Translations under genes and position numbers: made by a program
In this document: positions 11,200 through 64,000 of the stretch, in pieces
How positions within the stretch are numbered: position 1 is the stretch's first letter
Layout: every line of letters starts with the position of its first letter
Virus record (IMG/VR): IMGVR_UViG_3300036893_000033
Location: 30,888-94,887 of that record
Origin: a virus
DNA length: 64,000 bases
Reading direction: 5' to 3' (one strand)
The notes under the pieces: model-generated
The model's input: the letters and a program-made list of their open reading frames with translations, nothing else
Databases searched by the model: none
What the model was told of the DNA's origin: nothing

Positions 11200-11239
11200 A
11201 ATTCGGGCTGTCAACTAGGCCAATAAAACAGGAGAAAAT

Positions 11240-13093
11240 ATGAGCCGCATGATGATTAAGGCTGGGGCGACACTCGACGACAACGGGTACAAAACCCTAA
11301 GCAACTGGACGGCGAACTTCTACAAGAAGTCGCTGCGCAACTACCTGGAGCACGGCGAAAAGACCACGTTTGAGGCCGACATCCTCAAGTACAAGCGCGG
11401 TCGCAGCAGCCACTGCGCCTACGGCCCCGTCACCGAGATGCAGCCCATGCCGGGGACGCAGCAGAAGTGGGAGCAACTGGAAACCGAGAAGTTCGCGCGC
11501 TTCGAGTTCGCGAGCAAGATTATCCAGAAGATGTTCCACCACCAGAACAAGGAGTTCGGGCTGGAGAAATCGGGAGGCGTCACCAGCGCCCTCGGCTTCA
11601 ACTTCTACGATCTCCGTGGACCGGCTCTCATCCTGGCCCCCATCAACGTACCGTTCCGCAACTCCATCCCGCGCGTGGGCCGCGTCAACGACGGCTACGG
11701 TACCGCGGCGAACTGGAAGGCGTCCCGTAACCTCGGGCAGAACTACGGCGGCGTGGCCGAAGGTCAGCGCAACGCGACACAAACTCCCGACGAGATCGAC
11801 TACACCGCGACGTACAAGCAGATCGGTAATGAGCGTGCGGTGACGACCTCGGCGGAATTCGCGTCTGAAGGTTACAGCGCACAGCTTGGCGATGAGCATG
11901 TTCGCGGCATGTTGTCCCTGTGGCTCTCAGAAGAGGCCATTAACATCCACGGCAACAGCGGCACGGCGGCCACCGGCGGCTACGCGCTCGGTACGGCAAC
12001 CACGCCTACCATCGCGACCGCGACCGGCACGTCCACCTTTGGCGGAGCAACTCCCGTATCTGTGGCTTGCGTGTATATGACCGCCATGGGTAACCCCTCG
12101 AACAATCAGTACGGTTACATGACCAATCTTGTCGCGAACGCCAACACGGTCACTGGTGGCCTGGTACCCAATACCGTTCGCACAAACGCCGACGGATCGG
12201 TTATCACCGTACCCGGCGGCATCAGCGCCATCAGCGCGATGTCCTCGGTTGTAACTCCCAGCGGCACTACTCAGGTAGCCGTGGCCACCGTCCCTGCTGG
12301 CACGAAGGGTGTCTATGGATACGCCTGGTACGTGAACGTCACCGACGCCTCCGCGCCGTCGCTTGCAAACGCCAAGCTGGCCGCGATTACTCAGTTCCCT
12401 ACTTACACGATCACCTCTGCCACTATTGCTGGCACGCAAACCGGTAACGCCACTGGCCTCAATACCGACAACAGCTACAGCCAGTACGACTACACCGGGT
12501 TGATGGGATTTGCGGCGGGCACCGCTGGTTCTTACTACAAGGATCTCGGCGGCGGAACCCTCACCCCCACCAAGACAGGCAAGATCGTTGAGATCGAGAC
12601 CGCCCTCCAGACCATGTACCTGAACTACCAGACCGGCATCAATGCCATCTGGGGTTCGCAGGACGCCATCGAAGCCGTTGACCTTGCTTCCCGCTGGGGT
12701 GGGTCGAACGGACAGGCGCAGCAGTTCTTCTTTAACGGCGGCGCTGGCGAAGGTGGCCGCAATCTGGTTGTCGCCGGCTACGCGGTGACCGGTTACCAGT
12801 CGCGGTACGCTGCCGCTAACGAACTTGGCGCGCAGGTGATCCCGCTGCGCATCCACCCGATGATCCCTCCGGGCACGCTGTTCTTCGATATTTCGGAACT
12901 GCCTGCCGGGTATGAGAACAGCCGCCTGCCGTACCTCCGGGCGATGCTCACGCGGCGCGATTACCACTCCTACGAATGGCCGATGGTCACCCGCCAGTGG
13001 ACGTTCGGAACCTACGCGGAACAGGTGCTGGCGCACAATATGCCCTGGAGTTGCGGGGTAATCACCGGCATTGCCGGCGCGAACCTGAGTTAA
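11240..13093 (+). CDS. Major capsid protein with Thr/Gly-rich insertion domain
   Basis: Strong AGGAG RBS; FYDLRGPA..P.N.PFRN.IPR and LRIHPMIPPGT motifs; synteny. Confidence 0.88.
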   Translation: MSRMMIKAGATLDDNGYKTLSNWTANFYKKSLRNYLEHGEKTTFEADILKYKRGRSSHCAYGPVTEMQPMPGTQQKWEQLETEKFARFEFASKIIQKMFHHQNKEFGLEKSGGVTSALGFNFYDLRGPALILAPINVPFRNSIPRVGRVNDGYGTAANWKASRNLGQNYGGVAEGQRNATQTPDEIDYTATYKQIGNERAVTTSAEFASEGYSAQLGDEHVRGMLSLWLSEEAINIHGNSGTAATGGYALGTATTPTIATATGTSTFGGATPVSVACVYMTAMGNPSNNQYGYMTNLVANANTVTGGLVPNTVRTNADGSVITVPGGISAISAMSSVVTPSGTTQVAVATVPAGTKGVYGYAWYVNVTDASAPSLANAKLAAITQFPTYTITSATIAGTQTGNATGLNTDNSYSQYDYTGLMGFAAGTAGSYYKDLGGGTLTPTKTGKIVEIETALQTMYLNYQTGINAIWGSQDAIEAVDLASRWGGSNGQAQQFFFNGGAGEGGRNLVVAGYAVTGYQSRYAAANELGAQVIPLRIHPMIPPGTLFFDISELPAGYENSRLPYLRAMLTRRDYHSYEWPMVTRQWTFGTYAEQVLAHNMPWSCGVITGIAGANLS

Positions 13094-13125: not shown

Positions 13126-14481
13126 ATGCCGACACCAACCCCGAATCTTCAGGTAACGCCGCCGGAAACTCTCGGCGCACTCCAGTCGCAACTGGTTAAC
13201 GCTCTGGCCGCCGACGAGGCCGTAGCGGTAACCACGGTAGCCGGCGGATCTCAGACCCTACAGGGGGCAACGCTCAACACGAAAGTGCTGGCGACCCCTG
13301 GCGCTCCGACCATTACGACTTCCGGCACCGCAGGCGCAACGACCTACACCTACAAGGTCGTTGCTAAGATCGGCGCGGCCCCGCTGGGCCGCCCCACCGC
13401 CGCCTCCGCCGCAGGGTCCACCACCACCGGCAACGCAACGCTGTCGGCCAGTAACTTCAACATCGTCACCTTCACCTGTGTGCCGTATGCCACCAGCTAC
13501 GACATCTACCGCACCGCTGGTGGCTCGGCGCAGGGCAAGATCGCGAACGTCCTCCAGCCCGCTGCGGTGGTCGCGCAATTCCCGACCAGCCTCAGCTACC
13601 AGACCACCGCCACCACCGCTGTCCTGAACGACACCGGGCTGGCGGGCGACAGCAGCACAGCGCCCACGGTGAACCTGACCGGTTCCTGTCAGAACGACAC
13701 TCACGGCGACGTGAATGTGGTCGCACTATCAGCGCCTTATAACCTGGCGGTAGCAAATGCCGGTACGGCTGGGTCTACGGCTTACACCTATGTCGTATCC
13801 GCCGTTGATTCGGTCGGTGAGGTGCCATGCACGGGCGTGGCCACCGCCACAGGCAATGCCACACTGACCTCCGGCAACTCGAACCTGATTACCTGGAACG
13901 ACACCCCAGGCGCTCAGTACTACAACATCTACCGCAGCGCCTCTTCGGGCACGCCCGGCACGACCGGCTTGATCGGCACGGTATACCCGTCCGGTGCAGC
14001 GACCTACAGCTTCAGCGACACCGGCATCGCGGTCATCACAACCCGCGTGCCCACGACCAACACAACTGGCTCCGTCAAGGTTCCCGGCTCGATCTTCTGC
14101 TCCGGGCTGGTTCTTAACGGCCCCACGTCGGCGAACACGACCGCCGGTAACGCAGCCCTCACGGTCGCCAACATGCTGTCGAGCGTGCTCCTGCGCTCCG
14201 GCAGCACCACCCCGACCGATACCACCCCCACCGCCGCCGCCATCATCGGTGGACTGGCTGGTACGGCAGTGGCCAACACCGGCTGGTACTGGCTGGTAAG
14301 GAACGCTGGTTCGGGCACGCAGACGCTCGGACAGGCGGCGACGGGCATCACGTGGGCATCAACGCAGACGAACACGGTCGCGACCGTCAGCGGCCACCTG
14401 TTCTACATCTATCTGACGAATGTGACGCCTGGGTCCGAGGCGATCACGATTTACTCGGTCATCGGGTCAGTAGCGTACTAA
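13126..14481 (+). CDS. Capsid decoration/structural protein with two FN3-like repeats
   Basis: Duplicated GTAG.T.YTY.V.A...TGNATL...N.N.I.....A..Y.IYR module; follows the capsid gene with an AAGGAG RBS. Confidence 0.7.
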   Translation: MPTPTPNLQVTPPETLGALQSQLVNALAADEAVAVTTVAGGSQTLQGATLNTKVLATPGAPTITTSGTAGATTYTYKVVAKIGAAPLGRPTAASAAGSTTTGNATLSASNFNIVTFTCVPYATSYDIYRTAGGSAQGKIANVLQPAAVVAQFPTSLSYQTTATTAVLNDTGLAGDSSTAPTVNLTGSCQNDTHGDVNVVALSAPYNLAVANAGTAGSTAYTYVVSAVDSVGEVPCTGVATATGNATLTSGNSNLITWNDTPGAQYYNIYRSASSGTPGTTGLIGTVYPSGAATYSFSDTGIAVITTRVPTTNTTGSVKVPGSIFCSGLVLNGPTSANTTAGNAALTVANMLSSVLLRSGSTTPTDTTPTAAAIIGGLAGTAVANTGWYWLVRNAGSGTQTLGQAATGITWASTQTNTVATVSGHLFYIYLTNVTPGSEAITIYSVIGSVAY

Positions 14482-14536
14482 GGCAGGCTGGAGCGATTCC
14501 CACGGCGCGGGGCAATAATTCCTGGCAGTGGTTTCC

Positions 14537-14577: not shown

Positions 14578-14622
14578 ATGATGTCCAGACTCTGGACAGG
14601 TTAAGCGAGATGGCAGTAAGGT

Positions 14623-15981: not shown

Positions 15982-16523
15982 TGTCCCTGACTTATCAAAT
16001 CGACGCGCAGCTCCAATCCTTCACCGAGGCGAAGGCGGAGCAGTACTACGCCGCGCTGCGCACGAAGCTGGATTCGCTGAACGATCAGCTTCGGTCGAAG
16101 ATGATAGATAACCTTTCGGGCGCGGTCGTCCATGCGGTCAGCGGCAAAGCGGCGCGGTCGGTCGAGATGATCCCCTCCTCCACGTCAGGGACGCTCACTG
16201 AGGGCGCAGTGCAGGCAGGCGGCGGCCTTGCGCCGTACCTGAAGTATCAGGAACTTGGCACCGTGGGGCCGTACACGATCGCTCCTAAGTTCGCCACGCT
16301 GCCCGGTGAGAAATTCGCGAATTACCACGGGCGTATGGGAAAGCCTGTTGGCCAGCAGGCGGGCGTGCTCGCTTTCGTATGGAAAGGGCGGCAGGTTTTC
16401 TTCAAGAGCGTCATGCATCCCGGCCTCGATGCCAAGGAGCCGGTCAAGGAGGCGGCTATCGAGATGGCTCCTGTGATTGTGGCCGGAATCAAGGAAGTGG
16501 GGGCTGAGGTGTTCGCGTCATGA
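15981..16523 (+). CDS. Neck/tail completion protein (HK97 gp10-like)
   Basis: SG.AARS..YLKYQELGT..V.HPG pattern; synteny. Confidence 0.7.
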   Translation: MSLTYQIDAQLQSFTEAKAEQYYAALRTKLDSLNDQLRSKMIDNLSGAVVHAVSGKAARSVEMIPSSTSGTLTEGAVQAGGGLAPYLKYQELGTVGPYTIAPKFATLPGEKFANYHGRMGKPVGQQAGVLAFVWKGRQVFFKSVMHPGLDAKEPVKEAAIEMAPVIVAGIKEVGAEVFAS

Positions 16524-20074: not shown

Positions 20075-20188
20075 GGATCGCATTCTGGCTCCTCCGAAGA
20101 TTCGAGATATTCCGCCTGCCTGAACAGCAGAACACGGAGATACGCGCAGAGGTTGATTCGCTCTATGAAGTAGTCTACGGAGTATGGG

Positions 20189-23077
20189 GTGAGCACCATG
20201 CCTGATTCCGATTACATTAGAATTTTAACACAACTTGATGCTTCTGGCGTAAGAGACGGAATGGCGCAAGTCAATTCTGCCGTCAAGTCCGGTCTCGATC
20301 AGGTCAAATCCGCCTATGCTCAGGCTCAGGCGCAGGTCAAAGCTGCTGAAGAAGGACTGAAGACAGCGCAGGCCGCTATCGGGACTAACGCCGCCGCATG
20401 GGTTCAGAACAAAACTGCGGTTACCGCCGCTGAAGAGGCGCTGGCGAAGGCGACACTCGCTGCCGCGTCCCTCAAAGCGCAAATGGTGCAGTTGTCACCC
20501 GCCGTCGATAAGGCTACCTACTCCATGCTCCAGGCCAGATTAGCTGGCCGTGCCCTGGTGCAGGAGGTCGGAGGCCCACTGTCGTTTGTGTTCGGACAGG
20601 TTGCCAGTCAGTCGGCTACGCTGGGTCCGCTCATGGCGAACCTCTTCCCGTACATCGCGGGAGCGGCCTTTGTAAAAATAGCATACGACGTTGGGAAAGA
20701 ATTGTACGACTTGGTGGAGAAGTCTGGCCCGCTGATCGAGGCGGAGAAGCAACTTGCCGAACAGACGGCAAAGGACACGCAGGAGTTCTCTAAACTGGAG
20801 GACCAGTTTGAGCACCTTGAAATCGAAAAAATAACGCAGGAGTTGGGCAAGCTGGCCGGGCTGAAGCTTGCTGGATTTTTCGACGCCGGGGAACTGGCTC
20901 GCGATGAGTCCAGAGTAAAGTATCTGAGCGATTTGGCAGTACGTACGAAGCAGAAGATAGCCTCTGATGAATATCAGACATCCAACCCCGTAATATCCAC
21001 TCTTGAGGCCTTCAATCCTCTGGTGACTGGCATGAAGTTTGCCAATATCGACGACGCACAGGCACAAATAGATAACCTAAAAAAGATAAACGATGAACTG
21101 GACACGCTTAACGAAAAGCTACGGGTAGAACACTTGCTGCGCGATTTAAATTCCGGCAAGCAAAGCAAGCAGGAGGCCGACGACCTAAAGGATCAGTTCG
21201 ACGCGCGGGTCGCGGCGGAGCGCAAGGCCAACGCTGAATTATCCCGCAGCATCCACGATAAATACGACGATCAGGTGTCAGCACTCAAGGCGGGAGCCGA
21301 TTACTCGAAGGCCGCCGAGACGAAAATCCGCCAGGACGAGCTTGCAGAGGCGGAATCATACGGCAACCGCGTCAAAGAGTTGACGGTCGAGGTCAACAAG
21401 CAGGTCGCATCGCTGACACTTGAGGGCCAGACTGGACTCGCCCGCATTGTTCGCGAAGGGCATCGCATCGAGGCCGAAGAAGACAAAAAAGCCATAAAGG
21501 AAAAAGAAGCCACCCTGAAAGAGGGCTTTGAGGTTCTGGCTCGCGAAACTGAGCGCGAGGGGGAAGAACAGATTCGCGCCATACAGGCGCAGGAGCGGGA
21601 CGCCGAGGCTGCGCGCAAAGAATCCTATCAGGTGAAACGCAGAGTAACGGAGTCTGCCGGCGCCATTGGGGTAGATCCACTCGAAGTTCAGAAGGTTCAG
21701 GTCGAGGAAGCCGACAAGGAGCGCGAGAAAAGCATATTCGGGGAGAGCGTAAGGCAGCACGTCGAGTACCTTACGCAGATCGCGGATATAGACCAGGGCA
21801 TCATCAGGGAAAAGAAATCCGTCGTGGAGACGTTGAAGGCTCAGGACGAGGCGGCGTTAGCGGAGGCGCATAGGCATGGTGACGACACGAAGTTAATCGA
21901 CGAGAACATTGCACGTGACGACCAGCAGTTGGCTGCGTTGTCGAAAGAAGCGGCAATTGACAAGCTGAAGTCCGACGCCGCCATAGTCGAAGCCGAAACC
22001 GCCAACTGGCAGAAGCTAATCAAGACCCTCAACGGCGAAATCTCCAGCGGACTCGAACACGCCTTTAACGACCTGCTTCAACATCCGAAGAACTTCCAGA
22101 AAGACCTGAACTCCATCTGGCAGAAGATGCTGGAGGATGCCGAAGGGTTCTTTATTAAACTGGGCGTGAAGATCGCTGAGATCGAGGCGCTGAAGATTCT
22201 GTTGCCAAACTCACAGGCATCGAAGAATGCTCCGAGCATTGCGGATACAATCCGAGACGCGCTGGGGTTGAAGCATAAGGGCGGGGCTGGGCTGCCCGCG
22301 CCGGGGAGTGGTGGAATATTGGGTACCGGCGTCGGAGCACCCACCGGCACTGCCGCGCAGACACCGACACAGGCAACTCATGGCCTCGGCTCACCCGCCA
22401 CGGCAGGCGCGGACCCGGCTACTAACGCGGTTACGTTGGCGCAGCAACAGGCGCAGGCATTCTACGGCCAGCAGATCAGTTACGACCAGCAGATCCTTCA
22501 GGCGCTCCAGGACATCCGCACCAGCGCACAGGAGTCGGCGTCATGTACTTGCAGTTCAAGCGGCGGCGGCAGCAGCCTGGCAAATTCGGCGCTCACCACG
22601 GCAGGCGCGTTGGCAGGCGCAGCGGTCGGATCTAAGATCGGACAGATGGGCACTAATAACAGCCCGCAGTACGACAGCGGTGGTGGCTCTTACTTCCCGA
22701 TCTACGACCCGTATGGTCTCGGGTCTGGCTACAACCCAGGCTACGATCCGAATGACCCAGGGGCCACCGGCAACGACCCCGGAACCGCCAGCGGATGGAG
22801 CGCGGGCGGCGCGGACATCAGGCCCAAGGCGCACCTGTCGATGGGAACTAATTATGTGCCCAAGAGCGGCGTGTATCACCTAGACAGAGGCGAGTCGGTT
22901 CAGCCAAAAGCGTATAACCCGGCAGCGGGCGGTCAAGGCGCGGGTGGTGACACGCACCACCACTGGGGAGGGATCACGGTCAACGCGCCGCAGGCATCCA
23001 ACCCACAGCAGATCGGGGCTATGGTGCTCCAGCATGTGCAGTCTGAAATGCGCCGGTCGAACAGGAAGGCGGCATGA
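20189..23077 (+). CDS. Tape measure protein
   Basis: Long Ala/Glu/Lys helical protein after the chaperones; C-terminal GTNYVPKSGVYHLDRGESV motif. Confidence 0.88.
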   Translation: MSTMPDSDYIRILTQLDASGVRDGMAQVNSAVKSGLDQVKSAYAQAQAQVKAAEEGLKTAQAAIGTNAAAWVQNKTAVTAAEEALAKATLAAASLKAQMVQLSPAVDKATYSMLQARLAGRALVQEVGGPLSFVFGQVASQSATLGPLMANLFPYIAGAAFVKIAYDVGKELYDLVEKSGPLIEAEKQLAEQTAKDTQEFSKLEDQFEHLEIEKITQELGKLAGLKLAGFFDAGELARDESRVKYLSDLAVRTKQKIASDEYQTSNPVISTLEAFNPLVTGMKFANIDDAQAQIDNLKKINDELDTLNEKLRVEHLLRDLNSGKQSKQEADDLKDQFDARVAAERKANAELSRSIHDKYDDQVSALKAGADYSKAAETKIRQDELAEAESYGNRVKELTVEVNKQVASLTLEGQTGLARIVREGHRIEAEEDKKAIKEKEATLKEGFEVLARETEREGEEQIRAIQAQERDAEAARKESYQVKRRVTESAGAIGVDPLEVQKVQVEEADKEREKSIFGESVRQHVEYLTQIADIDQGIIREKKSVVETLKAQDEAALAEAHRHGDDTKLIDENIARDDQQLAALSKEAAIDKLKSDAAIVEAETANWQKLIKTLNGEISSGLEHAFNDLLQHPKNFQKDLNSIWQKMLEDAEGFFIKLGVKIAEIEALKILLPNSQASKNAPSIADTIRDALGLKHKGGAGLPAPGSGGILGTGVGAPTGTAAQTPTQATHGLGSPATAGADPATNAVTLAQQQAQAFYGQQISYDQQILQALQDIRTSAQESASCTCSSSGGGSSLANSALTTAGALAGAAVGSKIGQMGTNNSPQYDSGGGSYFPIYDPYGLGSGYNPGYDPNDPGATGNDPGTASGWSAGGADIRPKAHLSMGTNYVPKSGVYHLDRGESVQPKAYNPAAGGQGAGGDTHHHWGGITVNAPQASNPQQIGAMVLQHVQSEMRRSNRKAA

Positions 23078-23255
23078 TGCCCATACAGTTTACCCCACGC
23101 GCCGATGGTTGCATTCCGGACGCCTGCCCGGATTGGGATGTGTGCGCGGTCTGCGGGGAAGTGATCGACTACTACGATGGCAAGCAGCGCGTTGAAGATC
23201 CGATGTCGCTACATCGATTCAGGCACGGCAGCGAAGGATGTCCGAGGGACCGTAA

Positions 23256-23951
23256 ATGATATCCCTCTGCATGATTACCCTAAACGAATCCCCCCGCCTC
23301 CAGCGCGCCATAGACTCCGCACGCTCTCAGGTGGAGGAGCTTATCATCGTAGACACCGGCAGCACTGACGGAACCGTGGATATCGCCCGCGACAACATGG
23401 CGACGGTGGCACGCATCCCGTTCGTGGACTTCTCCCACGCGCGGAACTACAGCATATCGCTCGCACACGGGGATTACATTTTCGTCCTCGACGCCGACGA
23501 GACGCTGGAGGGCGAATTGCCGGTCCCTCACGTAAAACACAGCTACGCCTTTCATCGGGTCAACGTCGGGCCGGATTACAGGGCATGCGACGATTACCCC
23601 GTGCGACTGTTCCCGCGCTCCGCCTGCTACGAGGGCCGGGTACATGAGACCGTCAACGCCTCCGTTGCTCGCAACGGCGGCTCGATCCGCAGCGTAGCGA
23701 ACGCGATCCGTCACTGGCTCCCGACGCAAGGGGAGCGGAAGGCCAAGAATCTGCGCTACATTGAAGTCTTGAGGCAGGAAATAGCGGAGTCGCCTAACAT
23801 GGAACGTATGGAGTTTCTGGCGGCGGAGTATTACCAGATGGGCGAGTTTCAGCAGGCAGCGGCAGTGGCGCAGGGGATCGTTGACCGGTGGCCCGGTAAC
23901 GGTCGCTGGCACCAGCGGGCGCGTCGCTACCGGGAGGCGGTGGCAGCATGA
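23256..23951 (+). CDS. Glycosyltransferase family 2 with C-terminal TPR-like helices
   Basis: ISLCMI..NE, IVDTGSTDGT, DFSHARN, LDADE, GRVHE. Confidence 0.9.
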   Translation: MISLCMITLNESPRLQRAIDSARSQVEELIIVDTGSTDGTVDIARDNMATVARIPFVDFSHARNYSISLAHGDYIFVLDADETLEGELPVPHVKHSYAFHRVNVGPDYRACDDYPVRLFPRSACYEGRVHETVNASVARNGGSIRSVANAIRHWLPTQGERKAKNLRYIEVLRQEIAESPNMERMEFLAAEYYQMGEFQQAAAVAQGIVDRWPGNGRWHQRARRYREAVAA

Positions 23952-24476: not shown

Positions 24477-25177
24477 GCACGCCGATATTCGGCCCGCTGC
24501 CAGGGCTGATCTCAACCTATAGTCGCGGCAATGCCTGGGAGGGGATTCTCGTCCAAACGTCAGCTTCGCAAATTGAGGCCCGCCAGCAGCAGCAGTCATT
24601 TGCGCGGTATTCCGCCGACCTCAGCTTTGATTATTTAACAATGCAGTCGCGCGGATCTTACACGAACGCTATCGCGGCGCAGAATCTTCAGTACGTGATA
24701 GGCTTCCAGAACTCCCTCGGCGGTGGACTGTCCAGCTTCTTCTACCGCGACCAGGAAGACAACACTGCGATAGGTTCCGTGATCGGCACTGGCGATGGCG
24801 TCACCACCAGTTTCCAGGCGGTTAGGTATTGGGGATCGAACGCTCAGCCCGTCTACGGTTTCGACACCAGAGGCGCAATCAGCTACGGCTCAGGTTACGT
24901 GCAGCCAGCATCATATGCGCAGGCCGCGTACAGCAACGGCGTTCAGGACATGTCGGCTACTTTCGACAGCGAGACCGGAATTATAACGTACTCATCAGCG
25001 CCCGCCTCCGGCCATGCCTTGACCGCTGATTTCACGTACCTGTATCGGTGTCGGATCTTGGAAAATTCGCTTACCTTCGGGAGGCTGTGGAACACCAATT
25101 CGCAGAGCAACCTCAGTACGCCGAATGGCTACTACACGCTGAAGTCGTTCAAAATTATTCAGGTGCTCGCATCATGA
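24473..25177 (+). CDS. Distal tail protein (DUF2460/GTA-like)
   Basis: IGTGDGVTTSFQ and TG.IT...APASG..LTADF.Y..R motifs. Confidence 0.8.
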   Translation: MSTPIFGPLPGLISTYSRGNAWEGILVQTSASQIEARQQQQSFARYSADLSFDYLTMQSRGSYTNAIAAQNLQYVIGFQNSLGGGLSSFFYRDQEDNTAIGSVIGTGDGVTTSFQAVRYWGSNAQPVYGFDTRGAISYGSGYVQPASYAQAAYSNGVQDMSATFDSETGIITYSSAPASGHALTADFTYLYRCRILENSLTFGRLWNTNSQSNLSTPNGYYTLKSFKIIQVLAS

Positions 25178-26097: not shown

Positions 26098-27906
26098 ATG
26101 AAGTCTTCCGCCTCTCCCCAGCTAATCGCCTTTCTGAACCAGCCGAACCTGAAGTTCTATGGCGCGGACATCTACGAGTTCGTCCTCCAGAACACCACCA
26201 GCGTCCAGTATGCGATCACGGGGATCACGCAGGCTACCACAGGCGTCGTCTCCTACTCCGGCAGCGCCCCTGTCGCGGTCGGCAGTAAAGTCTATTTCAA
26301 CTACGTTGCGGGCATGACGCAAATCAATATGCTCACGGGCACCGTACTCACCACCGGATCAGGCACGTTCACAGTGGACATCGCCACCAATGTGTTCAAC
26401 GCCTACGTCTCCGGCGGCACGTTCGCGGTCCTGCCTGTCTTCCGCTGCTCCACCTTCGACCGCCCAATCCTGTACAACGGCGATTACTACCCGGTGGCGC
26501 GGGCGGCGGTCAACCAGTTGTACGCCGTGACCGGCATCTCCCAGGCCACGCTGGCAGTCGTGGATATCACCAAAAACCCGTTCAGCGTCGGCGACTCCAT
26601 GATCTTCGAGTCTGTCGGGGGCATGACGGAGATCAACGGGATGCAGGGGTACGTGGTCGCCCGCGATCCGGCGACCTGCACGATTACGATAGACACCACG
26701 TCCTTCGGAGCCTACGCCTCAGGCGGCACGGCGCTGATGCTCTCCGTCCCCGCCATGACGCGCTCGAAGCTGTCCCAGGCGGTCGGATTGAAGGCCAGCA
26801 AGGCGGATATCACGCTTCAGGCGACCCCCGACGCGCTCATCGCGGGACAGCCCATGCTTACGGCTATCGCACAGGGGGCGCTCGACAACGCTCAGGTTAC
26901 GATCCGGCGCTGTTTTATGACCTACGGGGACGTTCACTACAACGACGGCCAGCTGAACGGCCCAGCGATCTGCAATCTGACCGGGTCTCCGTTCGGGACG
27001 GGCGATGGCACGATCATCTGGTTTGCGGGCAACGTCGGAGCGATCACGAAGGTCGAAGCGCTCAAGGCCGAAATGGAAGTTTGGGATCTGATCTACCTCC
27101 TGAACCGGCCAACACCCAAGAATACCCTTGGACCGGGGTGCTGGCATCAGTTGTTTGATGAAGGATGCGGGATCAGTCCCGGTGGTGGGTTCGGTGGCGT
27201 CAACTGGACACAGACGGGGGGGACGATCACGAGCGCGACGACCCCAGGGGTACAGGCGTTCTCAACGAACATCGCTGTGGGTGCGCCACCACCGCCACCA
27301 CCAGCGCCAGTGTTTTCCCCAACAAATGGCATAAACGGCGGCATTAAGACCCTTCCAGGAAACTTCTATTATGCTGTCCTGACCTACGTATCGACAATTG
27401 GCGGGGAGACGCTGGCGTCACCTGTGTCGGTATCGATGTTCCTTGACCCTGGGTATGTCCCCAGGATTCAGCCTCCACCAGATCCAGGCAACGCTGTCGG
27501 CTGGAACGTCTATGTTGGCACTGAACCGGGAGCGGAGAACCTTCAGAACGGCGCTGTAATCCCTTTCAGCGGCGCGGGCAGCGGGCCATGGACATCCCCC
27601 AACGTCGGCATCAGCTACAACGTGGAGACCCCGCCCGTATTCCCCGGCGCGGGGTACTGGTCGCAGGGGGTTATCACGTTCACCAGCGGCGTCCTGAACG
27701 GGATCTCAGCGGTGGTCGATACGTCTGACGACGCCACCGGGTTTATGACTTTGCGGGTGCCTTTGATTATTGCGCCTACAGTCGGGACTAGTTTTTCGGT
27801 GCAATGTAACTGTGTGAAAACTTACTACAGTTGTAGTTACAAATTTGGGAACACGATCCACCTCGCGGCTGTGCCGTATACACCAACCCCAGAGCAGGCT
27901 TTTTAA
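26098..27906 (+). CDS. Baseplate hub protein (DUF2163/GTA-like) with inserted domains
   Basis: F.G.VG, PGCWHQLFDEGCG, G.ITFTSG.LNG and C.KT..SC..KFGN motifs. Confidence 0.82.
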   Translation: MKSSASPQLIAFLNQPNLKFYGADIYEFVLQNTTSVQYAITGITQATTGVVSYSGSAPVAVGSKVYFNYVAGMTQINMLTGTVLTTGSGTFTVDIATNVFNAYVSGGTFAVLPVFRCSTFDRPILYNGDYYPVARAAVNQLYAVTGISQATLAVVDITKNPFSVGDSMIFESVGGMTEINGMQGYVVARDPATCTITIDTTSFGAYASGGTALMLSVPAMTRSKLSQAVGLKASKADITLQATPDALIAGQPMLTAIAQGALDNAQVTIRRCFMTYGDVHYNDGQLNGPAICNLTGSPFGTGDGTIIWFAGNVGAITKVEALKAEMEVWDLIYLLNRPTPKNTLGPGCWHQLFDEGCGISPGGGFGGVNWTQTGGTITSATTPGVQAFSTNIAVGAPPPPPPAPVFSPTNGINGGIKTLPGNFYYAVLTYVSTIGGETLASPVSVSMFLDPGYVPRIQPPPDPGNAVGWNVYVGTEPGAENLQNGAVIPFSGAGSGPWTSPNVGISYNVETPPVFPGAGYWSQGVITFTSGVLNGISAVVDTSDDATGFMTLRVPLIIAPTVGTSFSVQCNCVKTYYSCSYKFGNTIHLAAVPYTPTPEQAF

Positions 27907-42883: not shown

Positions 42884-43618
42884 ATGCCAGCCACACACGT
42901 TTTGATTCGCGGACACCAATTCACCTATGCCGAGAAGGCTCCGTTTGCAGTGTCTGGCGAGTCCGTGTTGGGAGCGATTGAGTACGACGAAACCACAGAC
43001 CAGACCAAGTGCCACGAGTGCGGAGAATGGTTCAGTGGCATGGGCAGCCACATTAAATCACACGGAATAAAGCGGGACACATACAACGAGAAGCACGGTA
43101 TGCGGATACGATCTTCGCTGTCTGGCTTTACCGTTCGGCAGAAGCACCGGACGCTGGCCACAAAAGCATTTGAGGGGGGCGGCAACCTGAACCGCGTGGA
43201 CGTCGAGAAGAAGGACGCAGCCAGGATAGCCACCAACAAGCGACGCAAGGGAACAGCCGGAAACACGGCGGAGTACGACAACGAGCGCGCCAGGTGCAAG
43301 GCGCAGTCTCTGTTCAAGATCCAAACTCTTGCGGCGCAGACCGGGCACACGCCGACCTCGGCGGAATTATCTCAGATCGGCCTCGGGTCAACGATGCTTG
43401 CCTCGCGGTTTGGGTGCGTTAAAAATGCAATGCGGCTCGCAGGTCTGGAGCCTAACTTGGATGGCCACGTGCCGATGTCTGTCCCAAAAGGATTCCCTAC
43501 GGCGGAAGAAATCGCAGAGCGCAAGCGTCGATGGGAGGCGCCTATGCCGTGGCCGAAAGACGACGGCCCCAGTCTTCCATTCAGCCGGTCTGCCATAGCT
43601 GGAGCAATGGAGCGGTAA
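42884..43618 (+). CDS. MucR/Ros-like zinc finger plus homing-endonuclease-associated repeat DNA-binding protein
   Basis: CHECGEWF..MGSHIKSHGI...Y.EKHG; LAAQTGHTPT...RFG....AMRLAGL. Confidence 0.7.
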   Translation: MPATHVLIRGHQFTYAEKAPFAVSGESVLGAIEYDETTDQTKCHECGEWFSGMGSHIKSHGIKRDTYNEKHGMRIRSSLSGFTVRQKHRTLATKAFEGGGNLNRVDVEKKDAARIATNKRRKGTAGNTAEYDNERARCKAQSLFKIQTLAAQTGHTPTSAELSQIGLGSTMLASRFGCVKNAMRLAGLEPNLDGHVPMSVPKGFPTAEEIAERKRRWEAPMPWPKDDGPSLPFSRSAIAGAMER

Positions 43619-43964: not shown

Positions 43965-44043
43965 AGTCTGGGCAGGAGTCCCGGAGATCAACCACACACA
44001 TTGGCCCGCGCGGGTACTGACTGACCCGCGCGGGCCGTTTTTT
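43965..44043 (+). ncRNA. Candidate small RNA B ending in a strong intrinsic terminator
   Basis: TTGAAA-N17-TAGGAT promoter; 5' hairpin with CAGGAGT loop; CCACACACA linker; 13-bp stem 44003-44036 plus T tract. Confidence 0.45.
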
Positions 44044-44136: not shown

Positions 44137-44979
44137 ATGTTCTCCCAAGTCCCCCACCACCATAGGCTGTACGCGGGAATCCTGACGGCCATCGGCTCCG
44201 TGGCGATCTATTATCTTATTCAGGTCGAGCGGGCAAACGTTAGATTTCAGGATCAGGCCACGTTAACGCTTCGGACGCTGCCGAAGACGTTTACCGATGC
44301 GGTCCACGTTGAGATGACTGGTCTGCGCGCTGATGTACTGGCAAGGGTAGACGTGGGGCTTGACGATCTTGAGAAGACCGAACAGGACGCCAATGATCGC
44401 GTGGCTAGCGGTTTGTCGATCCTCAGGCAGGCCGAGTCCGACGCCAGCGACAGACTGGAACCGATCACGAATCCCGGCACCGGCGTCACCGCAACGCTAT
44501 GGAAGCTGGAGACGGATTTCAACCAGGGGCTGAACGGGAAGGGCGGGGCGGTTCAGAGCATAGCCGAACTGAGCGGGGCGTACCAGGCCGTGCCGTCTCA
44601 GTTGGCAGCCCAGGTTCTCCCCGCATGGAAGGCTATGGAGCCGGAGTTTACGTGCAGGCGCACGCTCCCCGACGGAACCACCGCCGGGTACGGGGGGTGC
44701 TACCACGCAGCGATCACGGCCACGCTCAACGAAACCCGCAATACGCTGGCGCAAGTACAGATCGGCATGAAAACATTCCCGGAGGTAGCCGTAAACATTA
44801 AAGCCGCCACAGATGCCAGCGCCGAAGCCAGCAAGAACGCCGCCGGGGTGCTCGCAAATTTAAAGGAGAGCACCAGGCCACTCCCCCGCTGGGCGCGGAT
44901 CGGATTGGGTGTAGCCCCGCCACTGGCATCCACCGCCAGCGCGATCATCGGCGCTCTGGCCTTAATCGGCGCGCTGTAG
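44137..44979 (+). CDS. Membrane-anchored helical protein (lysis region, possible spanin-like)
   Basis: N-terminal TM, long helical body, hydrophobic C-terminus. Confidence 0.6.
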   Translation: MFSQVPHHHRLYAGILTAIGSVAIYYLIQVERANVRFQDQATLTLRTLPKTFTDAVHVEMTGLRADVLARVDVGLDDLEKTEQDANDRVASGLSILRQAESDASDRLEPITNPGTGVTATLWKLETDFNQGLNGKGGAVQSIAELSGAYQAVPSQLAAQVLPAWKAMEPEFTCRRTLPDGTTAGYGGCYHAAITATLNETRNTLAQVQIGMKTFPEVAVNIKAATDASAEASKNAAGVLANLKESTRPLPRWARIGLGVAPPLASTASAIIGALALIGAL

Positions 44980-45124
44980 CTGCGGCTGTGGCTGCGGCAG
45001 CCTGCGGCAGCCTGCGGCTGTGACTGCGGCTGTGACTGCGGCCGTGACTGCGGCCGTGACTGCGGCAGCCTGCCTTAGTACGCTACCGAGCCGATGACTG
45101 AGGTGACTGCGGTTGTGACTGCGG
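44980..45124. repeat. Tandem array of 10-12 bp CTGCGG units interrupted by a 37-bp unique insert
   Basis: CTGCGG at 44980, 44992, 45002, 45012, 45024, 45036, 45048, 45060, 45107 and 45119. Confidence 0.9.
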
Positions 45125-45163
45125 CGGTAGCGCGTTAACCGCAGGAAACGCTACACTGTACCC

Positions 45164-45466
45164 ATGTACCTCCATGCCTTAGCGGACTTCGCGGATCGCC
45201 ATAAAGAGGGGCTTGGCTTGCTCGGGATCAGCGCCGTCGTAACGATGAGACCGAAACTGCCGTGGCCTTTCTGTCGGGTGGAGGCGCTTGAGTGGTGCTA
45301 CGAGTGGATGCGTGAGGCTCTGTTGACGTTACTCAGCTTCAAAGGTCCCCTGCCGCATGGCGCAATGGCGCAGTCTTCGGAGCACACCAGCACAGATGCG
45401 GCGGGAAACAGGGAAACGTCTAAGGAGTCGTCTTCGACGGGCGCAGCGACACCGCCGGTCGCTTAG
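45164..45466 (+). CDS. Holin-like small membrane protein
   Basis: Hydrophobic segment with hydrophilic tail; upstream of the endolysin. Confidence 0.45.
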   Translation: MYLHALADFADRHKEGLGLLGISAVVTMRPKLPWPFCRVEALEWCYEWMREALLTLLSFKGPLPHGAMAQSSEHTSTDAAGNRETSKESSSTGAATPPVA

Positions 45467-46719: not shown

Positions 46720-46992
46720 TGCCGTGACCCGCCGCCAGCAAGCCATAGACGCCGCCATCCTGGCACTGAGGTGCGAACCGGAAAACGCACGGGAAATGCT
46801 GACGAAGCTGATTGAAGATGCGGAGCGGGGCAAGCTGAAGGAGTCTTTCCCGGTGCATATCGTGGGGTATAATATCGACAGAACCGTAGAGGCTTTCGGA
46901 ACCGCTATCCAGCGCGGCGCGGCGCATACGTTCGCACCTCCGCATGGTGGCGGAAACTGCACCATTTGCGCTTTGCCGGAGGGCGATCACTC

Positions 46993-47535
46993 GTGACTCT
47001 GATAGAGTCCTGCATTGCGTTTACTGGGCGGCAGGAGGGATTCTGCGCATGGCCATACTTAGACACGGAGTCCAACGTGACCATCGGCTTCGGCATTATG
47101 TGCCCTACCGCCGTGGCGCTCGCCAATCTGTTTGGTCTCACGTCACCCGCCGACATCGCGCCCATCGCAGAGCAGTTCAGCGCGGTGAAGTCCAGCGAAC
47201 CGGGTAAGTGCTCGGGATATTACGAGCAGTTCAGTAAAATTCGAATGCCACTCGACCGCGCACAGGAAATTATGGCGCAGCGCCTGGGTTCTTCCATAAC
47301 TCAGTGCCGTAAGCGTATCCCCGAATTCGACGCGCTGCCGATTCCGGTCGCCACCGCCGCCGTTGACATCGACTACAACGTCAAAGGCGGTATCGGCAGC
47401 TTCCCCTCCTTCTGCGCCGCTGTCGCGCGGGGAGACTGGGCCGCCGCTGCCGTGGAGAGTGACCGACCGCAGTTACCAAAGCGGTCGGCGGATACCAGGG
47501 CGCTGATACTTTCGGTGGCTAACGCGGTCTCGTAA
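46993..47535 (+). CDS. Endolysin, T4-lysozyme-like (GH24)
   Basis: E-x8-D-x5-T triad EGFCAWPYLDTESNVTIGFG; FPSFCAAV..GDWAAAAVES. Confidence 0.85.
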   Translation: MTLIESCIAFTGRQEGFCAWPYLDTESNVTIGFGIMCPTAVALANLFGLTSPADIAPIAEQFSAVKSSEPGKCSGYYEQFSKIRMPLDRAQEIMAQRLGSSITQCRKRIPEFDALPIPVATAAVDIDYNVKGGIGSFPSFCAAVARGDWAAAAVESDRPQLPKRSADTRALILSVANAVS

Positions 47536-47751
47536 AGTAGGGGAATTATACATGTGAGAACAAATCACCTCTTTCGCTCCTCGTCAAAAGCGAGAATCGC
47601 CGCTTGAATGCCAGCGGTCCATCCTTTTTCCCACTGGCCCTGCGACCAGATAGCTGATCACTTTCCCGCGCCACCAAAAACCGGGTAGTGGGTCAGTTTG
47701 AAATTTCTTTCTATTGACGTTCCGTCCCCAGTTGGGATAATGGGTTCACGT

Positions 47752-48006
47752 ATGCCTGACCGCTCAAAAACACGCCCGCGAGACCCGAACGAACTTGGAT
47801 TCCGCATCATTCAGGAAGCCACTGGCCAGATTCCAAAGTACGACCCGCGCGAGGACAAGCCAGCAGATCCAGCAAAGAATCCCCACGCCGTTGCGTTAGG
47901 TCGTCTCGGCGGCCTCAAGGGCGGCGCGGCGCGGGCGGCGGCACTTTCGCCACGTAAACGGTCGCAGATTGCCGCTAAGGCGGCGGCTAAGCGGTGGGGA
48001 AAGTAG
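47752..48006 (+). CDS. Small basic IS-associated protein (KGG-like)
   Basis: RPRDPNEL..KNPHAVALGRLGGLKGGAARA..RSQIAAKAAAKRW. Confidence 0.8.
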   Translation: MPDRSKTRPRDPNELGFRIIQEATGQIPKYDPREDKPADPAKNPHAVALGRLGGLKGGAARAAALSPRKRSQIAAKAAAKRWGK

Positions 48007-48014
48007 CCGTATTT

Positions 48015-48233
48015 ATGACTGACGAACAATGGCAAGCGATGAAGGAATTTGTTCGAGCCTATCATAGATTACACACAGACCACATGCTGCTCACCGGTAT
48101 GCTGGCATTTAGCCAACATACCGGGAAACCTCCGGAGGACTGGTTGTCGCAACTGAAGGTGCTCCGTGAGCTTCCGGGACACCGTAAGTCAAGCCAAGAA
48201 ATAAAAGAACTTCTCGCTGGAGTTGAGCGATAG
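48015..48233 (+). CDS. Hypothetical IS cargo protein
   Basis: ORF follows the previous gene closely. Confidence 0.45.
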   Translation: MTDEQWQAMKEFVRAYHRLHTDHMLLTGMLAFSQHTGKPPEDWLSQLKVLRELPGHRKSSQEIKELLAGVER

Positions 48234-48548
48234 AGGACCGATAGTCGGCTAACTTGGCTTCTAAATAATCTTCCGAAATCTGGCCTGATTCAGTAGCTGG
48301 CATCCTACATGACCTTTCATGCTTGAGTAGACGCTCGATACACCTTCGGCGTAAACTCAGCTTGAACGGTCCCTTTGCGGTGTGTCACCACTGCGCTTGG
48401 GCCAAGGCTGAGCGGATTTTCCAGATTCCATCGGACGCCCCATGCGCCCGCGTACAGCCCCACTGTGCAATTCCAGTTTACAGGAGAATGCGCATGGAAA
48501 ATTACTACGGCCCCGGCGATCCGATGTTTGATCGTTTTTCGGCAGTCA

Positions 48549-48767
48549 TCAGTGCCGGGGCGAAAAACCAAACTCGCGACGAATTGCGTCAGCGACTTGA
48601 TGAGATTTATCCCCGATCTCAACCCGACACATCGTCATCTGATCGTCTGACGCAGCGCCAGCACGCTTCAGCGCAAGCTGAAGCGCCTGAACCTCAATCT
48701 CCAGCTTCGCAAGGTATTTGATAACATCATCGCGGAATTTTTCAAATTCAGGAGGTGTTGTGGGCAT
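48549..48767 (-). CDS. Hypothetical IS cargo protein
   Basis: Divergent from the transposase. Confidence 0.5.
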   Translation of the reverse strand: MPTTPPEFEKFRDDVIKYLAKLEIEVQALQLALKRAGAASDDQMTMCRVEIGDKSHQVADAIRREFGFSPRH

Positions 48768-48848
48768 TCGGTGATTCTATCGCGCTCCGCCCTGAGTTTT
48801 TCTTTTTTTCTACTTGACTTATAATGCTTGACCGCTTATACTTGAGAT

Positions 48849-49673
48849 ATGAACAAGCTCGACACGGCCAAGCGAACACAGATCGTCAAATGCCTGGTTG
48901 ACGGCGTTTCCATTCGTGGCACCGTCCGCATTACTGGCGCATCGAAGAACACGATTGCGAAACTCCTGGTGGAGTTGGGCGCGGCGTGCTCCGAATACCT
49001 CGACAGGACGCTAGTGAATCTCAAAAGCAAGCGGATTCAGTGCGATGAAATATGGTCGTTCGTAGCAGCCAAAGAGAAGAACGTTACCCCTAAAATGGCG
49101 GCGGCAAAGTTCTGCGGTGACGCCTGAACCTGGGTAGCAATTGACGCCGACTCAAAGCTTATCTGCTCCTGGCTGATCGGCAAACGGGACGCGGGGTGCG
49201 CGACGGCATTCATTCAGGACTTAGCGGGACGCCTCAAGAATCGCGTGCAACTCACCACCGATGGCCTCAAGCTCTATCTCAACGCGGTTGCCGATGGGTT
49301 CGACGGAGACATCGACTACGCCATGCTGGTGAAGGTATACGGAACCGACCGTGAAGGCGAGAAGCGGTATAGCCCCGCTACATGCCTTGGCTGCGAGACC
49401 CACACGATCAAGGGCAACCCCGACCCTGCGCACATAAACACCAGCTACATTGAACGCCAGAACCTCACGATGCGCATGTCGATGCGCCGCTTTACCCGGC
49501 TAACGAATGCTTTTTCAAAGAAGCTTGAGAACCACATTGCGACCGTGGCGATCCACACGATGTATTACAACTTCGTGCGCATCCACCAAACGTTGCGGGT
49601 TACTCCAGCCATGGCGGCCGGCGTTACTGATCGGCTGTGGGCGGTGGAGGATCTGGTGGAGCTACTGGATTGA
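48849..49673 (+). pseudogene. IS1-family transposase with an in-frame TGA at 49125-49127
   Basis: N-terminal HTH, then IQCDEIWSFV, GDA*TWVAID, QLTTDG, NTSYIERQNLTMR and RRFTRLTNAFSKK, all in one frame. Confidence 0.9.
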
Positions 49674-50538
49674 GCGGGTCCGGTAATTCCCAGATGTACT
49701 GAAGACCGTATTGCCCGCGTGCTTGTTCCAGCTGCCTTAGTCCCTCAAAGCCTACGCTAACTGCCGACACATCCTCCGGCCCAGACCCAACTACAGGGGG
49801 TGAAATAACTATCAGTTTTGTGTCGGTACCTACGCCGACATTTTTCTCACTGTACTTTTTCGCCTCATAGACCACATACAAGGCCTGTTTCAGGGAATCC
49901 CTCGGCGTACAATCTCGCGCGTTCAGGAATACCGCAGCTATGGCCCCGCCACTGCCAACGGTCGCGAAAGACTGATTGAAGTAGACTGACGGCTTTGTTG
50001 TGCTGCCGATGCTGACACCGCTTATTACGGGCACTGCGCCGATGAAGCCACAGGCGAGAATATCTACCGCTGCGTCCTTCCTGTACATCGGGCTGCCAAT
50101 AAATGAGTTTCCGGCATTCATCAGTAATTCAAATACTCGTCCACGGTCCGACGGCGCTCCGTTAGCCAGGAATTCTGACTTTATCCAGCCGTGGAGCTCT
50201 TTGGCTCTTACCCAGTCGCCCGACATCATATCTACCCAGCCGAAAGCGAGTTTTCCTATCTTTCGGTTTCCGTCGCTTGATCCCGCATACGAGCCATCCA
50301 GTTTCGTGTCCGCACAGAGGACTATCTTCGGATCAGATATTTCCTGGCAAATCGCTGCGATGCAAACCGTCACTGGGTTCCGCTTTCCATTGGGCTTGGG
50401 CACAGGATATCGTACTTGCTTGAGCGGTCCGCGCGAGGGTGCCGGGCGTTGCAGAATCGGATGCCAGGTGGGCTGGATGTTTACCTCTCGATAGTGGCGC
50501 GGTTGATGTATACTTGCGGGTTCTGTAGCTGTTCGCAT
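49624..50538 (-). CDS. Proteasome-beta-like Ntn hydrolase (IS cargo); mature Thr at ~50370
   Basis: V|TVCIAAIC..VLCADTK..K..ATVGSGG.IA..L....VYEAKK....VG. Confidence 0.72.
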   Translation of the reverse strand: MRTATEPASIHQPRHYREVNIQPTWHPILQRPAPSRGPLKQVRYPVPKPNGKRNPVTVCIAAICQEISDPKIVLCADTKLDGSYAGSSDGNRKIGKLAFGWVDMMSGDWVRAKELHGWIKSEFLANGAPSDRGRVFELLMNAGNSFIGSPMYRKDAAVDILACGFIGAVPVISGVSIGSTTKPSVYFNQSFATVGSGGAIAAVFLNARDCTPRDSLKQALYVVYEAKKYSEKNVGVGTDTKLIVISPPVVGSGPEDVSAVSVGFEGLRQLEQARGQYGLQYIWELPDPLNPVAPPDPPPPTADQ

Positions 50539-50606
50539 TTGTCAATCCCCCTGTTTTTCAAACTGACCCACTACCGGAAATCCGGGCATGCAGGAAGGGA
50601 TGTTGA

Positions 50607-63399: not shown

Positions 63400-64000
63400 A
63401 TGGAAGCAGAGACAGATAAAACTTACGCGCTAATCATGCGCACCTGCAACGCGGACATGCAATCGCATGGCGGATTCCAGTGGCCGGAATCTGGCTATGT
63501 GTCCGCCCCGGACTGGTCGCCTGAGCCTGAATGTGGATATGGCCTGCACGGACTTCTGTGGGGCGAGGGAGACGGAGGCTTGCTGGATTGGTCCGAAGAT
63601 GCGAAGTGGCTTGTATGTCGCGTGGACGTGGCTACTGTAGTTGCCATCGGGCGCAAGGTTAAGTTTCCCGCCTGCGAAGTACTGTTTGTTGGAGACAGCA
63701 AGACTGCGCCGGAATTCCTTCGCATAAACGGTGGAGAAGGTCACTGTATCGTCAGCGGCACAGCCACGGCGGGCTACAGCGGCACAGCCACGGCGGGCGA
63801 CAGCGGCACAGCCACGGCGGGCGACAGCGGCACAGCCACGGCGGGCGTCAGCGGCACAGCCACGGCGGGCGACGGCGGCACAGCCACGGCGGGCGACAGC
63901 GGCACAGCCACGGCGGGCGTCAGCGGCACAGCCACGGCGGGCGTCAGCGGCACAGCCACGGCGGGCGACAGCGGCACAGCCACGGCGGGCGTCAGCGGCA
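63400..64000 (+). CDS. DUF7666-like protein with xSGTATAG octapeptide repeats, 3'-truncated
   Basis: GAGGT RBS; MQSHGGFQWP..APDW..ECGYGLHG..KVKF, then the repeats. Confidence 0.75.
   Translation, partial: MEAETDKTYALIMRTCNADMQSHGGFQWPESGYVSAPDWSPEPECGYGLHGLLWGEGDGGLLDWSEDAKWLVCRVDVATVVAIGRKVKFPACEVLFVGDSKTAPEFLRINGGEGHCIVSGTATAGYSGTATAGDSGTATAGDSGTATAGVSGTATAGDGGTATAGDSGTATAGVSGTATAGVSGTATAGDSGTATAGVSG
63751..64000 (+). repeat. 24-bp coding tandem repeat, about 10 copies
   Basis: NNCAGCGGCACAGCCACGGCGGGC; variation almost entirely in the first codon (GTC/TAC/GAC). Confidence 0.95.

Follow-up and report, generated by a model that had tools for sequence, protein, structure and literature searches.

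Genome record and array locus

The window analyzed here is the whole 64,000-nt stretch at bases 30888-94887 of the 94,887-bp IMG/VR record IMGVR_UViG_3300036893_000033. Positions are those of the window unless given as record coordinates. In the collections searched, the lineage is sampled by two genomes, this record and a sister phage (IMG/VR UViG_3300048502_000088; 96,486 bp). The two are collinear mosaics with blocks of 78-100% identity. The closest cultured phages are Brevundimonas phages, with a head protein 33-37% identical, and blastn against cultured phages returned no match for the array region or for the source-gene region described below. The host may be an alphaproteobacterium. A 24-nt tandem array is common to both record ends (window 63702-64000 and record 1-286; approximately 10-12 copies each), and the assembly probably closes on itself within this end array, though IMG/VR lists the record as linear.

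At the locus, the ORF list places a 280-aa gene at 44137-44979 on the plus strand. The protein has hydrophobic N- and C-termini and no Pfam or PHROG match, and no homologue beyond the two phages was found among 5.8 billion proteins searched. A tandem array (44980-45128) starts right at the stop codon of this gene and ends 36 nt before the next listed ORF (45164-45466, plus strand, 100 aa). Ten CTGCGG cores start at 44980, 44992, 45002, 45012, 45024, 45036, 45048, 45060, 45107 and 45119. The left part of the array (44980-45065) contains eight CTGCGG units with a period of 12 or 10 nt, joined by the linkers CTGTGG, CAGC (three times), CTGTGA (twice) and CCGTGA (twice). The right part (45103-45128) contains two units, GTGACTGCGGTT and GTGACTGCGGCG, followed by GT. 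TRF reported a period of 12 with 7.6 copies and a period of 10 with 2.7 copies. An earlier note on this DNA, made from the sequence alone, described an inverted gene fragment embedded among ten such units. The unit positions confirm this arrangement, with the fragment between the eighth and ninth CTGCGG cores.

The first unit of the sister array is formed by the last codon and stop of the 280-aa gene and the core (CTG TGA CTGCGG), with the stop TGA lying within GTGACTGCGG. The same 12-mer recurs as units 4 and 5 in the present array. Units that repeat the gene-end 12-mer are what slippage duplication of the gene-end junction would give. Read-through of the 280-aa stop codon into the array was ruled out by an in-frame TGA in every sister unit.

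The double unit GTGACTGCGGNNGTGACTGCGG was found at 6 viral, 85 metagenome and 94 bacterial-genome loci, in unrelated GC-rich organisms. At the viral and metagenome loci, where reading frames were inspected, it lies mostly within long ORFs, and these loci share no protein with the present phage. It is single or strictly tandem in all three collections, and a CRISPR spacing of 55-75 nt was never seen. On this distribution, the array is judged to be a generic GC-rich tandem repeat and not a dedicated repeat family.

A strong terminator-like hairpin (44002-44037; 12 of its 14 pairs are G-C, and a T-run follows) lies approximately 100 nt 5′ of the 280-aa gene and suggests that a transcription unit begins after it. 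A promoter and terminator scan found no terminator-like site between the 280-aa gene and ORF 45164-45466, so the array would be read through if the region is a single transcript. The 280-aa gene, the array and the following ORFs may form one such transcript.

A weak ROS/MucR zinc-finger match and an HNH_repeat, a repeat associated with homing endonucleases, occur in a 244-aa protein encoded at 42884-43618. If this is a nuclease of the homing type, its proximity to the array could predispose the region to break repair. ORF 46966-47535 may encode a lysozyme-like protein, judged by eye, and has no Pfam match. Apart from the MucR-like/HNH-repeat protein, the other neighbors of the array have no assigned function.

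The inverted copy and its source gene

The fragment within the array (45066-45102, minus strand) is an inverted copy of 14454-14490 on the plus strand. The matched segment, 30.6 kb away, takes in the final eight codons and TAA stop of a 451-aa head gene with Fn3-like repeats, plus 9 nt of downstream sequence. An inverted-repeat search confirmed the reported match at 34 of 37 positions and ranked it as the top-scoring inverted repeat in the window. The longest exact run is 21 nt (14470-14490 / 45066-45086), versus 14-18 nt for the longest exact inverted match in 60 triplet-block shuffles that kept triplet composition. The inverted match exceeds chance.

The three mismatches, given as resident gene/copy, are at 14457 (G/A), 14466 (G/C) and 14469 (A/G). 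Codon comparison agrees with the earlier note that all three are third codon positions of the 451-aa ORF and that both versions encode SVIGSVAY*. The note's description held at every point checked. Single substitutions of the 37-mer were enumerated to weigh this pattern. The probability that all three mismatches are synonymous is p = 0.01; conditioned on coding positions, p = 0.023; and for no non-synonymous change among the three, p = 0.10. With p at 0.01-0.10 by the null chosen, the synonymous-only pattern is weaker evidence than first appears.

No ORF covers the copy. On the minus strand, the SVIGSVAY frame runs for 18 codons from stop to stop, and a minus-strand gene ending in SVIGSVAY* was ruled out by the TAA 18 codons upstream. 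The sole listed minus-strand ORF at the array is a 30-codon frame that terminates within the insert.

The source gene (13126-14481, plus strand) follows a 617-aa head protein (phrog_13692) and precedes the head-tail adaptor. The earlier note called it a decoration gene. Its Fn3-like repeats and its place among the head genes fit that description, but Pfam and PHROG gave no family match for the 451-aa protein, and the name is a positional one. "Decoration-like" is used here in that sense. The same note placed the fragment just upstream of a head terminator. Folding does give a GC-rich hairpin followed by a U-run approximately 47 nt beyond 14454-14490, although the simple terminator scan did not call it.

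A decoration-protein profile searched against IMG/VR found relatives at most 51% identical, the sister excepted. Closer protein homologues (P0003-P0005) have 66-73% identity and end in S-I-[IS]-GSVAY, and an identical decoration protein is encoded on seven contigs. An 18-nt sequence with dyad symmetry, TGTCCAGACTCTGGACAG, occurs twice in the record (window 14582-14599 and record 3395), once in the stretch that separates the head hairpin from the start of the adaptor gene. The sister retains both occurrences, and the sequence is a candidate operator or promoter-associated site.

Comparison with the sister phage

The genes around the array and the source gene are nearly invariant between the two phages. 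Over 841 nt of the 280-aa gene there are 0 differences (100.000% identity), and over all 1356 nt of the 451-aa gene likewise 0; the genes 3′ of the array have 0-1 base differences. The sister array has six units versus ten here, other linkers and no gene-derived insert. It consists of four GTGACTGCGGAC units, one irregular unit with an extra GAG, and then the last two units of the present phage. The linkers CT, CC and CAGC are absent from the sister, and the sister's AC linker (all ACGTGA) is absent from all units here. From the common GAG onward, the right part of the array is identical in the two phages. The net insertion relative to the sister is approximately 34 nt (45066-45099) in place of AC, the final GAG being common to the sister array.

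The insert is thus a presence/absence polymorphism between two phages with nucleotide-identical flanks. Because the flanks are identical and the array differs, the array must turn over far faster than its flanks. The earlier note had suggested looking for relatives that carry the same array with different inserts; the only relative, the sister, carries the array with none.

In the sister, the irregular GAG coincides exactly with the insert position and with its right-hand junction. It could have been there beforehand and been used as return microhomology, or it could mark a place from which the sister has lost an insert. Given a GAG at this position, the insert may predate the split of the two phages. 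Its survival in an array that changes so fast could then hint at retention. The polymorphism may stem from insertion here or from deletion in the sister.

The sister also bears on the proposal that the insert is a trans-acting antisense regulator. By this account, the array would be transcribed with the 280-aa gene, and the 37 nt would pair with the 3′ end of the decoration-like mRNA and alter its stability or termination. Under plus-strand transcription the copy would be antisense in orientation, with no terminator-like site after the upstream gene. The predicted duplex is very stable, at -88.5 kcal/mol with 21 perfect pairs, and a second 21-nt mRNA-mRNA complementarity ties the same region to the tape-measure-like gene. 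Complementarity is, however, automatic for any inverted templated copy. Scans of the array found no promoter- or terminator-like site and no processing structure, Rfam returned sub-threshold noise and no family, and the fold z-scores of the array (-2.1 and -2.4) are weak. The insert is absent from a sister with an identical target and identical flanks, which makes it dispensable, and the pairing region is not conserved in the only relative. We consider an antisense role unlikely.

Junctions and origin of the differences

The earlier note observed that the ends of the copy blend into the array units, and both junctions do show microhomology. At the left junction is the 8-nt CAGCCTGC, which is found on the complementary strand just downstream of the 451-aa gene. 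The same 8-mer is part of the 10-nt variant unit of the array (CTGCGG-CAGC-CTGCGG), a unit that occurs twice more at 44992-45011. At the right junction, GATGACTGAGG of the copy and the unit TGTGACTGCGG agree at 8 of 11 positions, with TGACTG exact and the common GAG adjoining.

An assembly or amplification artefact was also considered. The record is assembled from a metagenome, and tandem arrays are difficult for assemblers. With at most 8 nt common to the array and the gene end, an artefact is unlikely, since a de Bruijn graph can pass from one to the other only if real reads cross both junctions. Nor is the copy a simple mis-join of sequence from the same genome, as it departs from the record's own gene at three positions. 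An artefactual origin is very improbable.

Two of the three differences, those giving ..GAGCCG.. and ..GACTG.., bring the copy closer to the neighboring unit GGCCGTGACTGCGG, and so they may reflect homogenization within the array instead of marking a foreign allele. The chance of two such unit-like changes is approximately 0.11, so this argument is no stronger than the one from synonymous sites. A functional donor allele is suggested by the purely synonymous nature of the three differences. Since the resident gene is 100% identical in both phages and the copy differs at 3 of 37 positions, capture of a diverged allele, as the earlier note had it, is plausible. The identity of the resident gene also means that it has not drifted since the two phages split.

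The donor was sought with a degenerate codon pattern that allowed every synonymous spelling of SVIGSVAY*, in viral, metagenome and genome contigs. The only match in the three collections was the sister's gene, which is the resident allele. The perfect 37/37 match for which the note had proposed a search of viral metagenomes was thus absent from the viral, metagenome and genome collections. Capture from the allele of a related phage stays plausible on the three differences, with no donor found and with homogenization able to explain two of them.

Four sources can be named for the differences. The template could plausibly have been the diverged allele of a co-infecting phage. The fragment may have been inserted in another relative from that relative's own gene, the array segment then being imported by recombination; the mosaicism evident between the two genomes is the ground for this option. 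An old insert may preserve a decoration allele that has since been replaced. Last, the changes may have arisen within the array after insertion.

Another proposal is that the fragment is a spacer-like guide against a competing relative with a 37/37 allele. The model for it is the virus-borne mini-CRISPR array, in which spacers mismatch the carrier's own locus (Medvedeva et al. 2019, PMC6858448), and here the self-mismatches would avert self-targeting. The likeness is that an intergenic viral repeat structure holds a gene piece that mismatches the carrier's own copy, at three positions, and a 36-37 nt insert between two 23-nt double units has CRISPR-like dimensions. The repeats are nevertheless contiguous 10-12 nt tandem units without spacers, unlike CRISPR repeats of approximately 23-50 nt, and no host CRISPR repeat is known to correspond to them. 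A leader is lacking, repeats and spacers do not alternate, a single insert is present, and the sister has no spacer rather than a different one. The double-unit motif was never at CRISPR-like spacing in the viral, metagenome and genome collections, these held no perfect target, and Pfam and PHROG identified no effector candidate adjoining the array and no reverse transcriptase. A spacer-like function is therefore most improbable by this comparison.

Recombinases, a second inverted patch and other arrays

The record encodes a 240-aa small serine recombinase of the resolvase/invertase type (record 20411-20851, L132 1252-1974; minus strand), with a Resolvase domain at E 2.8e-38. Arrays of the GGTCAGCC type precede the small serine recombinase gene. 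The two copies of the gene end might accordingly be thought a crossover or att-like site at which this enzyme flips the 30.6-kb segment and keeps the decoration ORF intact; the copy includes the stop codon and only synonymous changes, so the protein would be preserved on crossover. The recombinase is, however, distant from both copies (25 and 55 kb), and the sister, with one copy only, retains the enzyme. The 37-mer is without clear dyad symmetry, inversion of half the late genes has no obvious use, and the two genomes are collinear. In its distant recombinase and in the lack of clear dyad symmetry at the sites, the case is also unlike the Gin/Hin serine-invertase switches. A crossover function is highly unlikely.

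Two other recombination systems were ruled out from the gene content of the record. No tyrosine integrase is encoded that would use an att site. A diversity-generating retroelement (DGR) was excluded by the absence of a reverse transcriptase (PF00078) in the 94.9-kb record; the differences here are G/A, G/C and A/G, and unlike those of a DGR they are not confined to template adenines.

The whole record contains four exact inverted repeats of at least 20 nt. Two of the four, each a pair of terminal inverted repeats, belong to apparent mobile elements missing from the sister; another is the decoration-gene copy. A second ectopic patch (46955-46975, plus strand) has a 21-nt exact inverted match to 20473-20493 (plus strand), in the 962-aa tape-measure-like gene. 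The partner, 26.5 kb from the second patch, sits on the right-hand margin of a mosaic patch (20154-20497) that is strongly diverged. Compared with the sister, 46955-46975 has five changes within 8 nt (NCTICAL here, NCIVCAL in the sister), bordered by 5 and 9 identical bases, in a background that is 98.8% identical. As read from the alignment, it shows the classical appearance of ectopic copying from an inverted template. Among the 82 substitution clusters screened between the genomes, it is the only one with such an inverted ectopic match. One further case in 82 clusters indicates that the templated process is rare, and general, pervasive templated conversion was ruled out on this count. Two inverted ectopic patches within 2 kb, present here and not in the sister, favor a mutational process over a purpose-built element.

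The mobile elements are as follows. A 3-kb segment at window 47544-50575 is replaced by 238 nt in the sister. It contains perfect 20-nt inverted repeats (47684-47703 / 50556-50575), the right one ending exactly where homology resumes, and looks like a mobile element. A 2.1-kb segment at record 9994-12121, missing in the sister, has 26-nt perfect terminal inverted repeats (9994/12096) and resembles an IS insertion. Approximately 9 nt of the sister aligns to both of its flanks, which suggests a target-site duplication.

The record is rich in tandem arrays, others being at 22794-23275, 25008-25052, 16157-16227, 1175-1355 and 27083-27133 (record coordinates). Copy numbers differ greatly between the present phage and the sister, for instance 39.5 versus 5.8 for GACGGCTGACC and 6.3 versus 49.7 for the GCGACCG/GCCGGTC heptamer. 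Only two arrays of the record contain foreign sequence, namely the array with the decoration copy and that at record 22794-23275, which has a 15-nt direct copy of the end of the adjoining gene at a CCACC microhomology. Two arrays with one gene-end fragment each would suit the idea that the arrays of this lineage are landing pads that capture gene 3′-end fragments, the decoration fragment being retained as a CRISPR-independent interference or regulatory element that, when transcribed, would pair with a competitor's matching allele or with the phage's own mRNA. We hold this idea to be very doubtful.

Interpretation

The observations that bear on the origin of the element are the copy itself, its two junctions, its absence from a near-identical sister and the hypervariability of the array. 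Among the options raised in the earlier note, a microhomology recombination scar fits best, with presence/absence between identical flanks and microhomology at both junctions. The element is probably a microhomology-mediated templated insertion or recombination scar in a hypervariable array, with no dedicated function. Against this reading, the copy is only 34/37 identical to its sole known template, its three differences are all synonymous, and the sister's GAG leaves room for an insert older than the split. We infer a template switch as the mechanism, and the identity of the donor is likewise a matter of inference.

The proposed sequence of events is as follows. Slippage of a 12-base stretch across the stop codon of the 280-aa gene would have built up the array. 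While DNA was being replicated or a break repaired, a growing strand whose end was CAGCCTGC would have annealed to this 8-mer where it recurs, on the complementary strand directly 3′ of the decoration-like gene. Approximately 26-30 nt would then have been copied backwards into the last codons of that gene, before a return to the array via the TGACTG/GAG microhomology. A co-infecting relative with a diverged allele could have supplied the template, or the template could have been a resident allele that was replaced afterwards; otherwise, the array segment could have come in from a relative by recombination. Some of the three differences may alternatively be due to later homogenization by neighboring units.

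Known processes resemble parts of this proposal. Quasipalindrome-templated mutations occur in phage T4. In mosaic phage genomes, illegitimate recombination makes joints where only a few bases agree, and gene ends are frequent sites. Both phages here are mosaics of this kind; unlike a mosaic joint, the present case involves no exchanged module, since approximately 34 nt were inserted and both sides are still array. Arrays of the VNTR type are similar in that genomes identical in the flanks show sharp differences in copy number and in unit variants, and in that the unit contains the last codon and stop of the adjacent gene, as expected from junction duplication. They differ in that the present array has a foreign, gene-derived interruption. 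Short-range template switching (PMC7954356) was compared as a templated-mutation process. It shares with the present case a short inverted copy of an identifiable template, with microhomology at both junctions, and its changes are likewise indels or clustered substitutions between close relatives. In contrast, the template here is 30.6 kb away (26.5 kb in the second case), beyond the reach of a replication fork, the copy is 34/37 and not identical, and the landing site is a tandem array.

The insert would matter far more if it were a retained antisense or interference element, which the present evidence disfavors. If the reading as a templated insertion or recombination scar is true, the locus would be a clean natural example of templated insertion inside a hypervariable repeat, in which the sister fixes the before/after state at single-base resolution. 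Such an example would not amount to a new system; it would help in understanding the origin of mosaic joints and clustered substitutions in phages.
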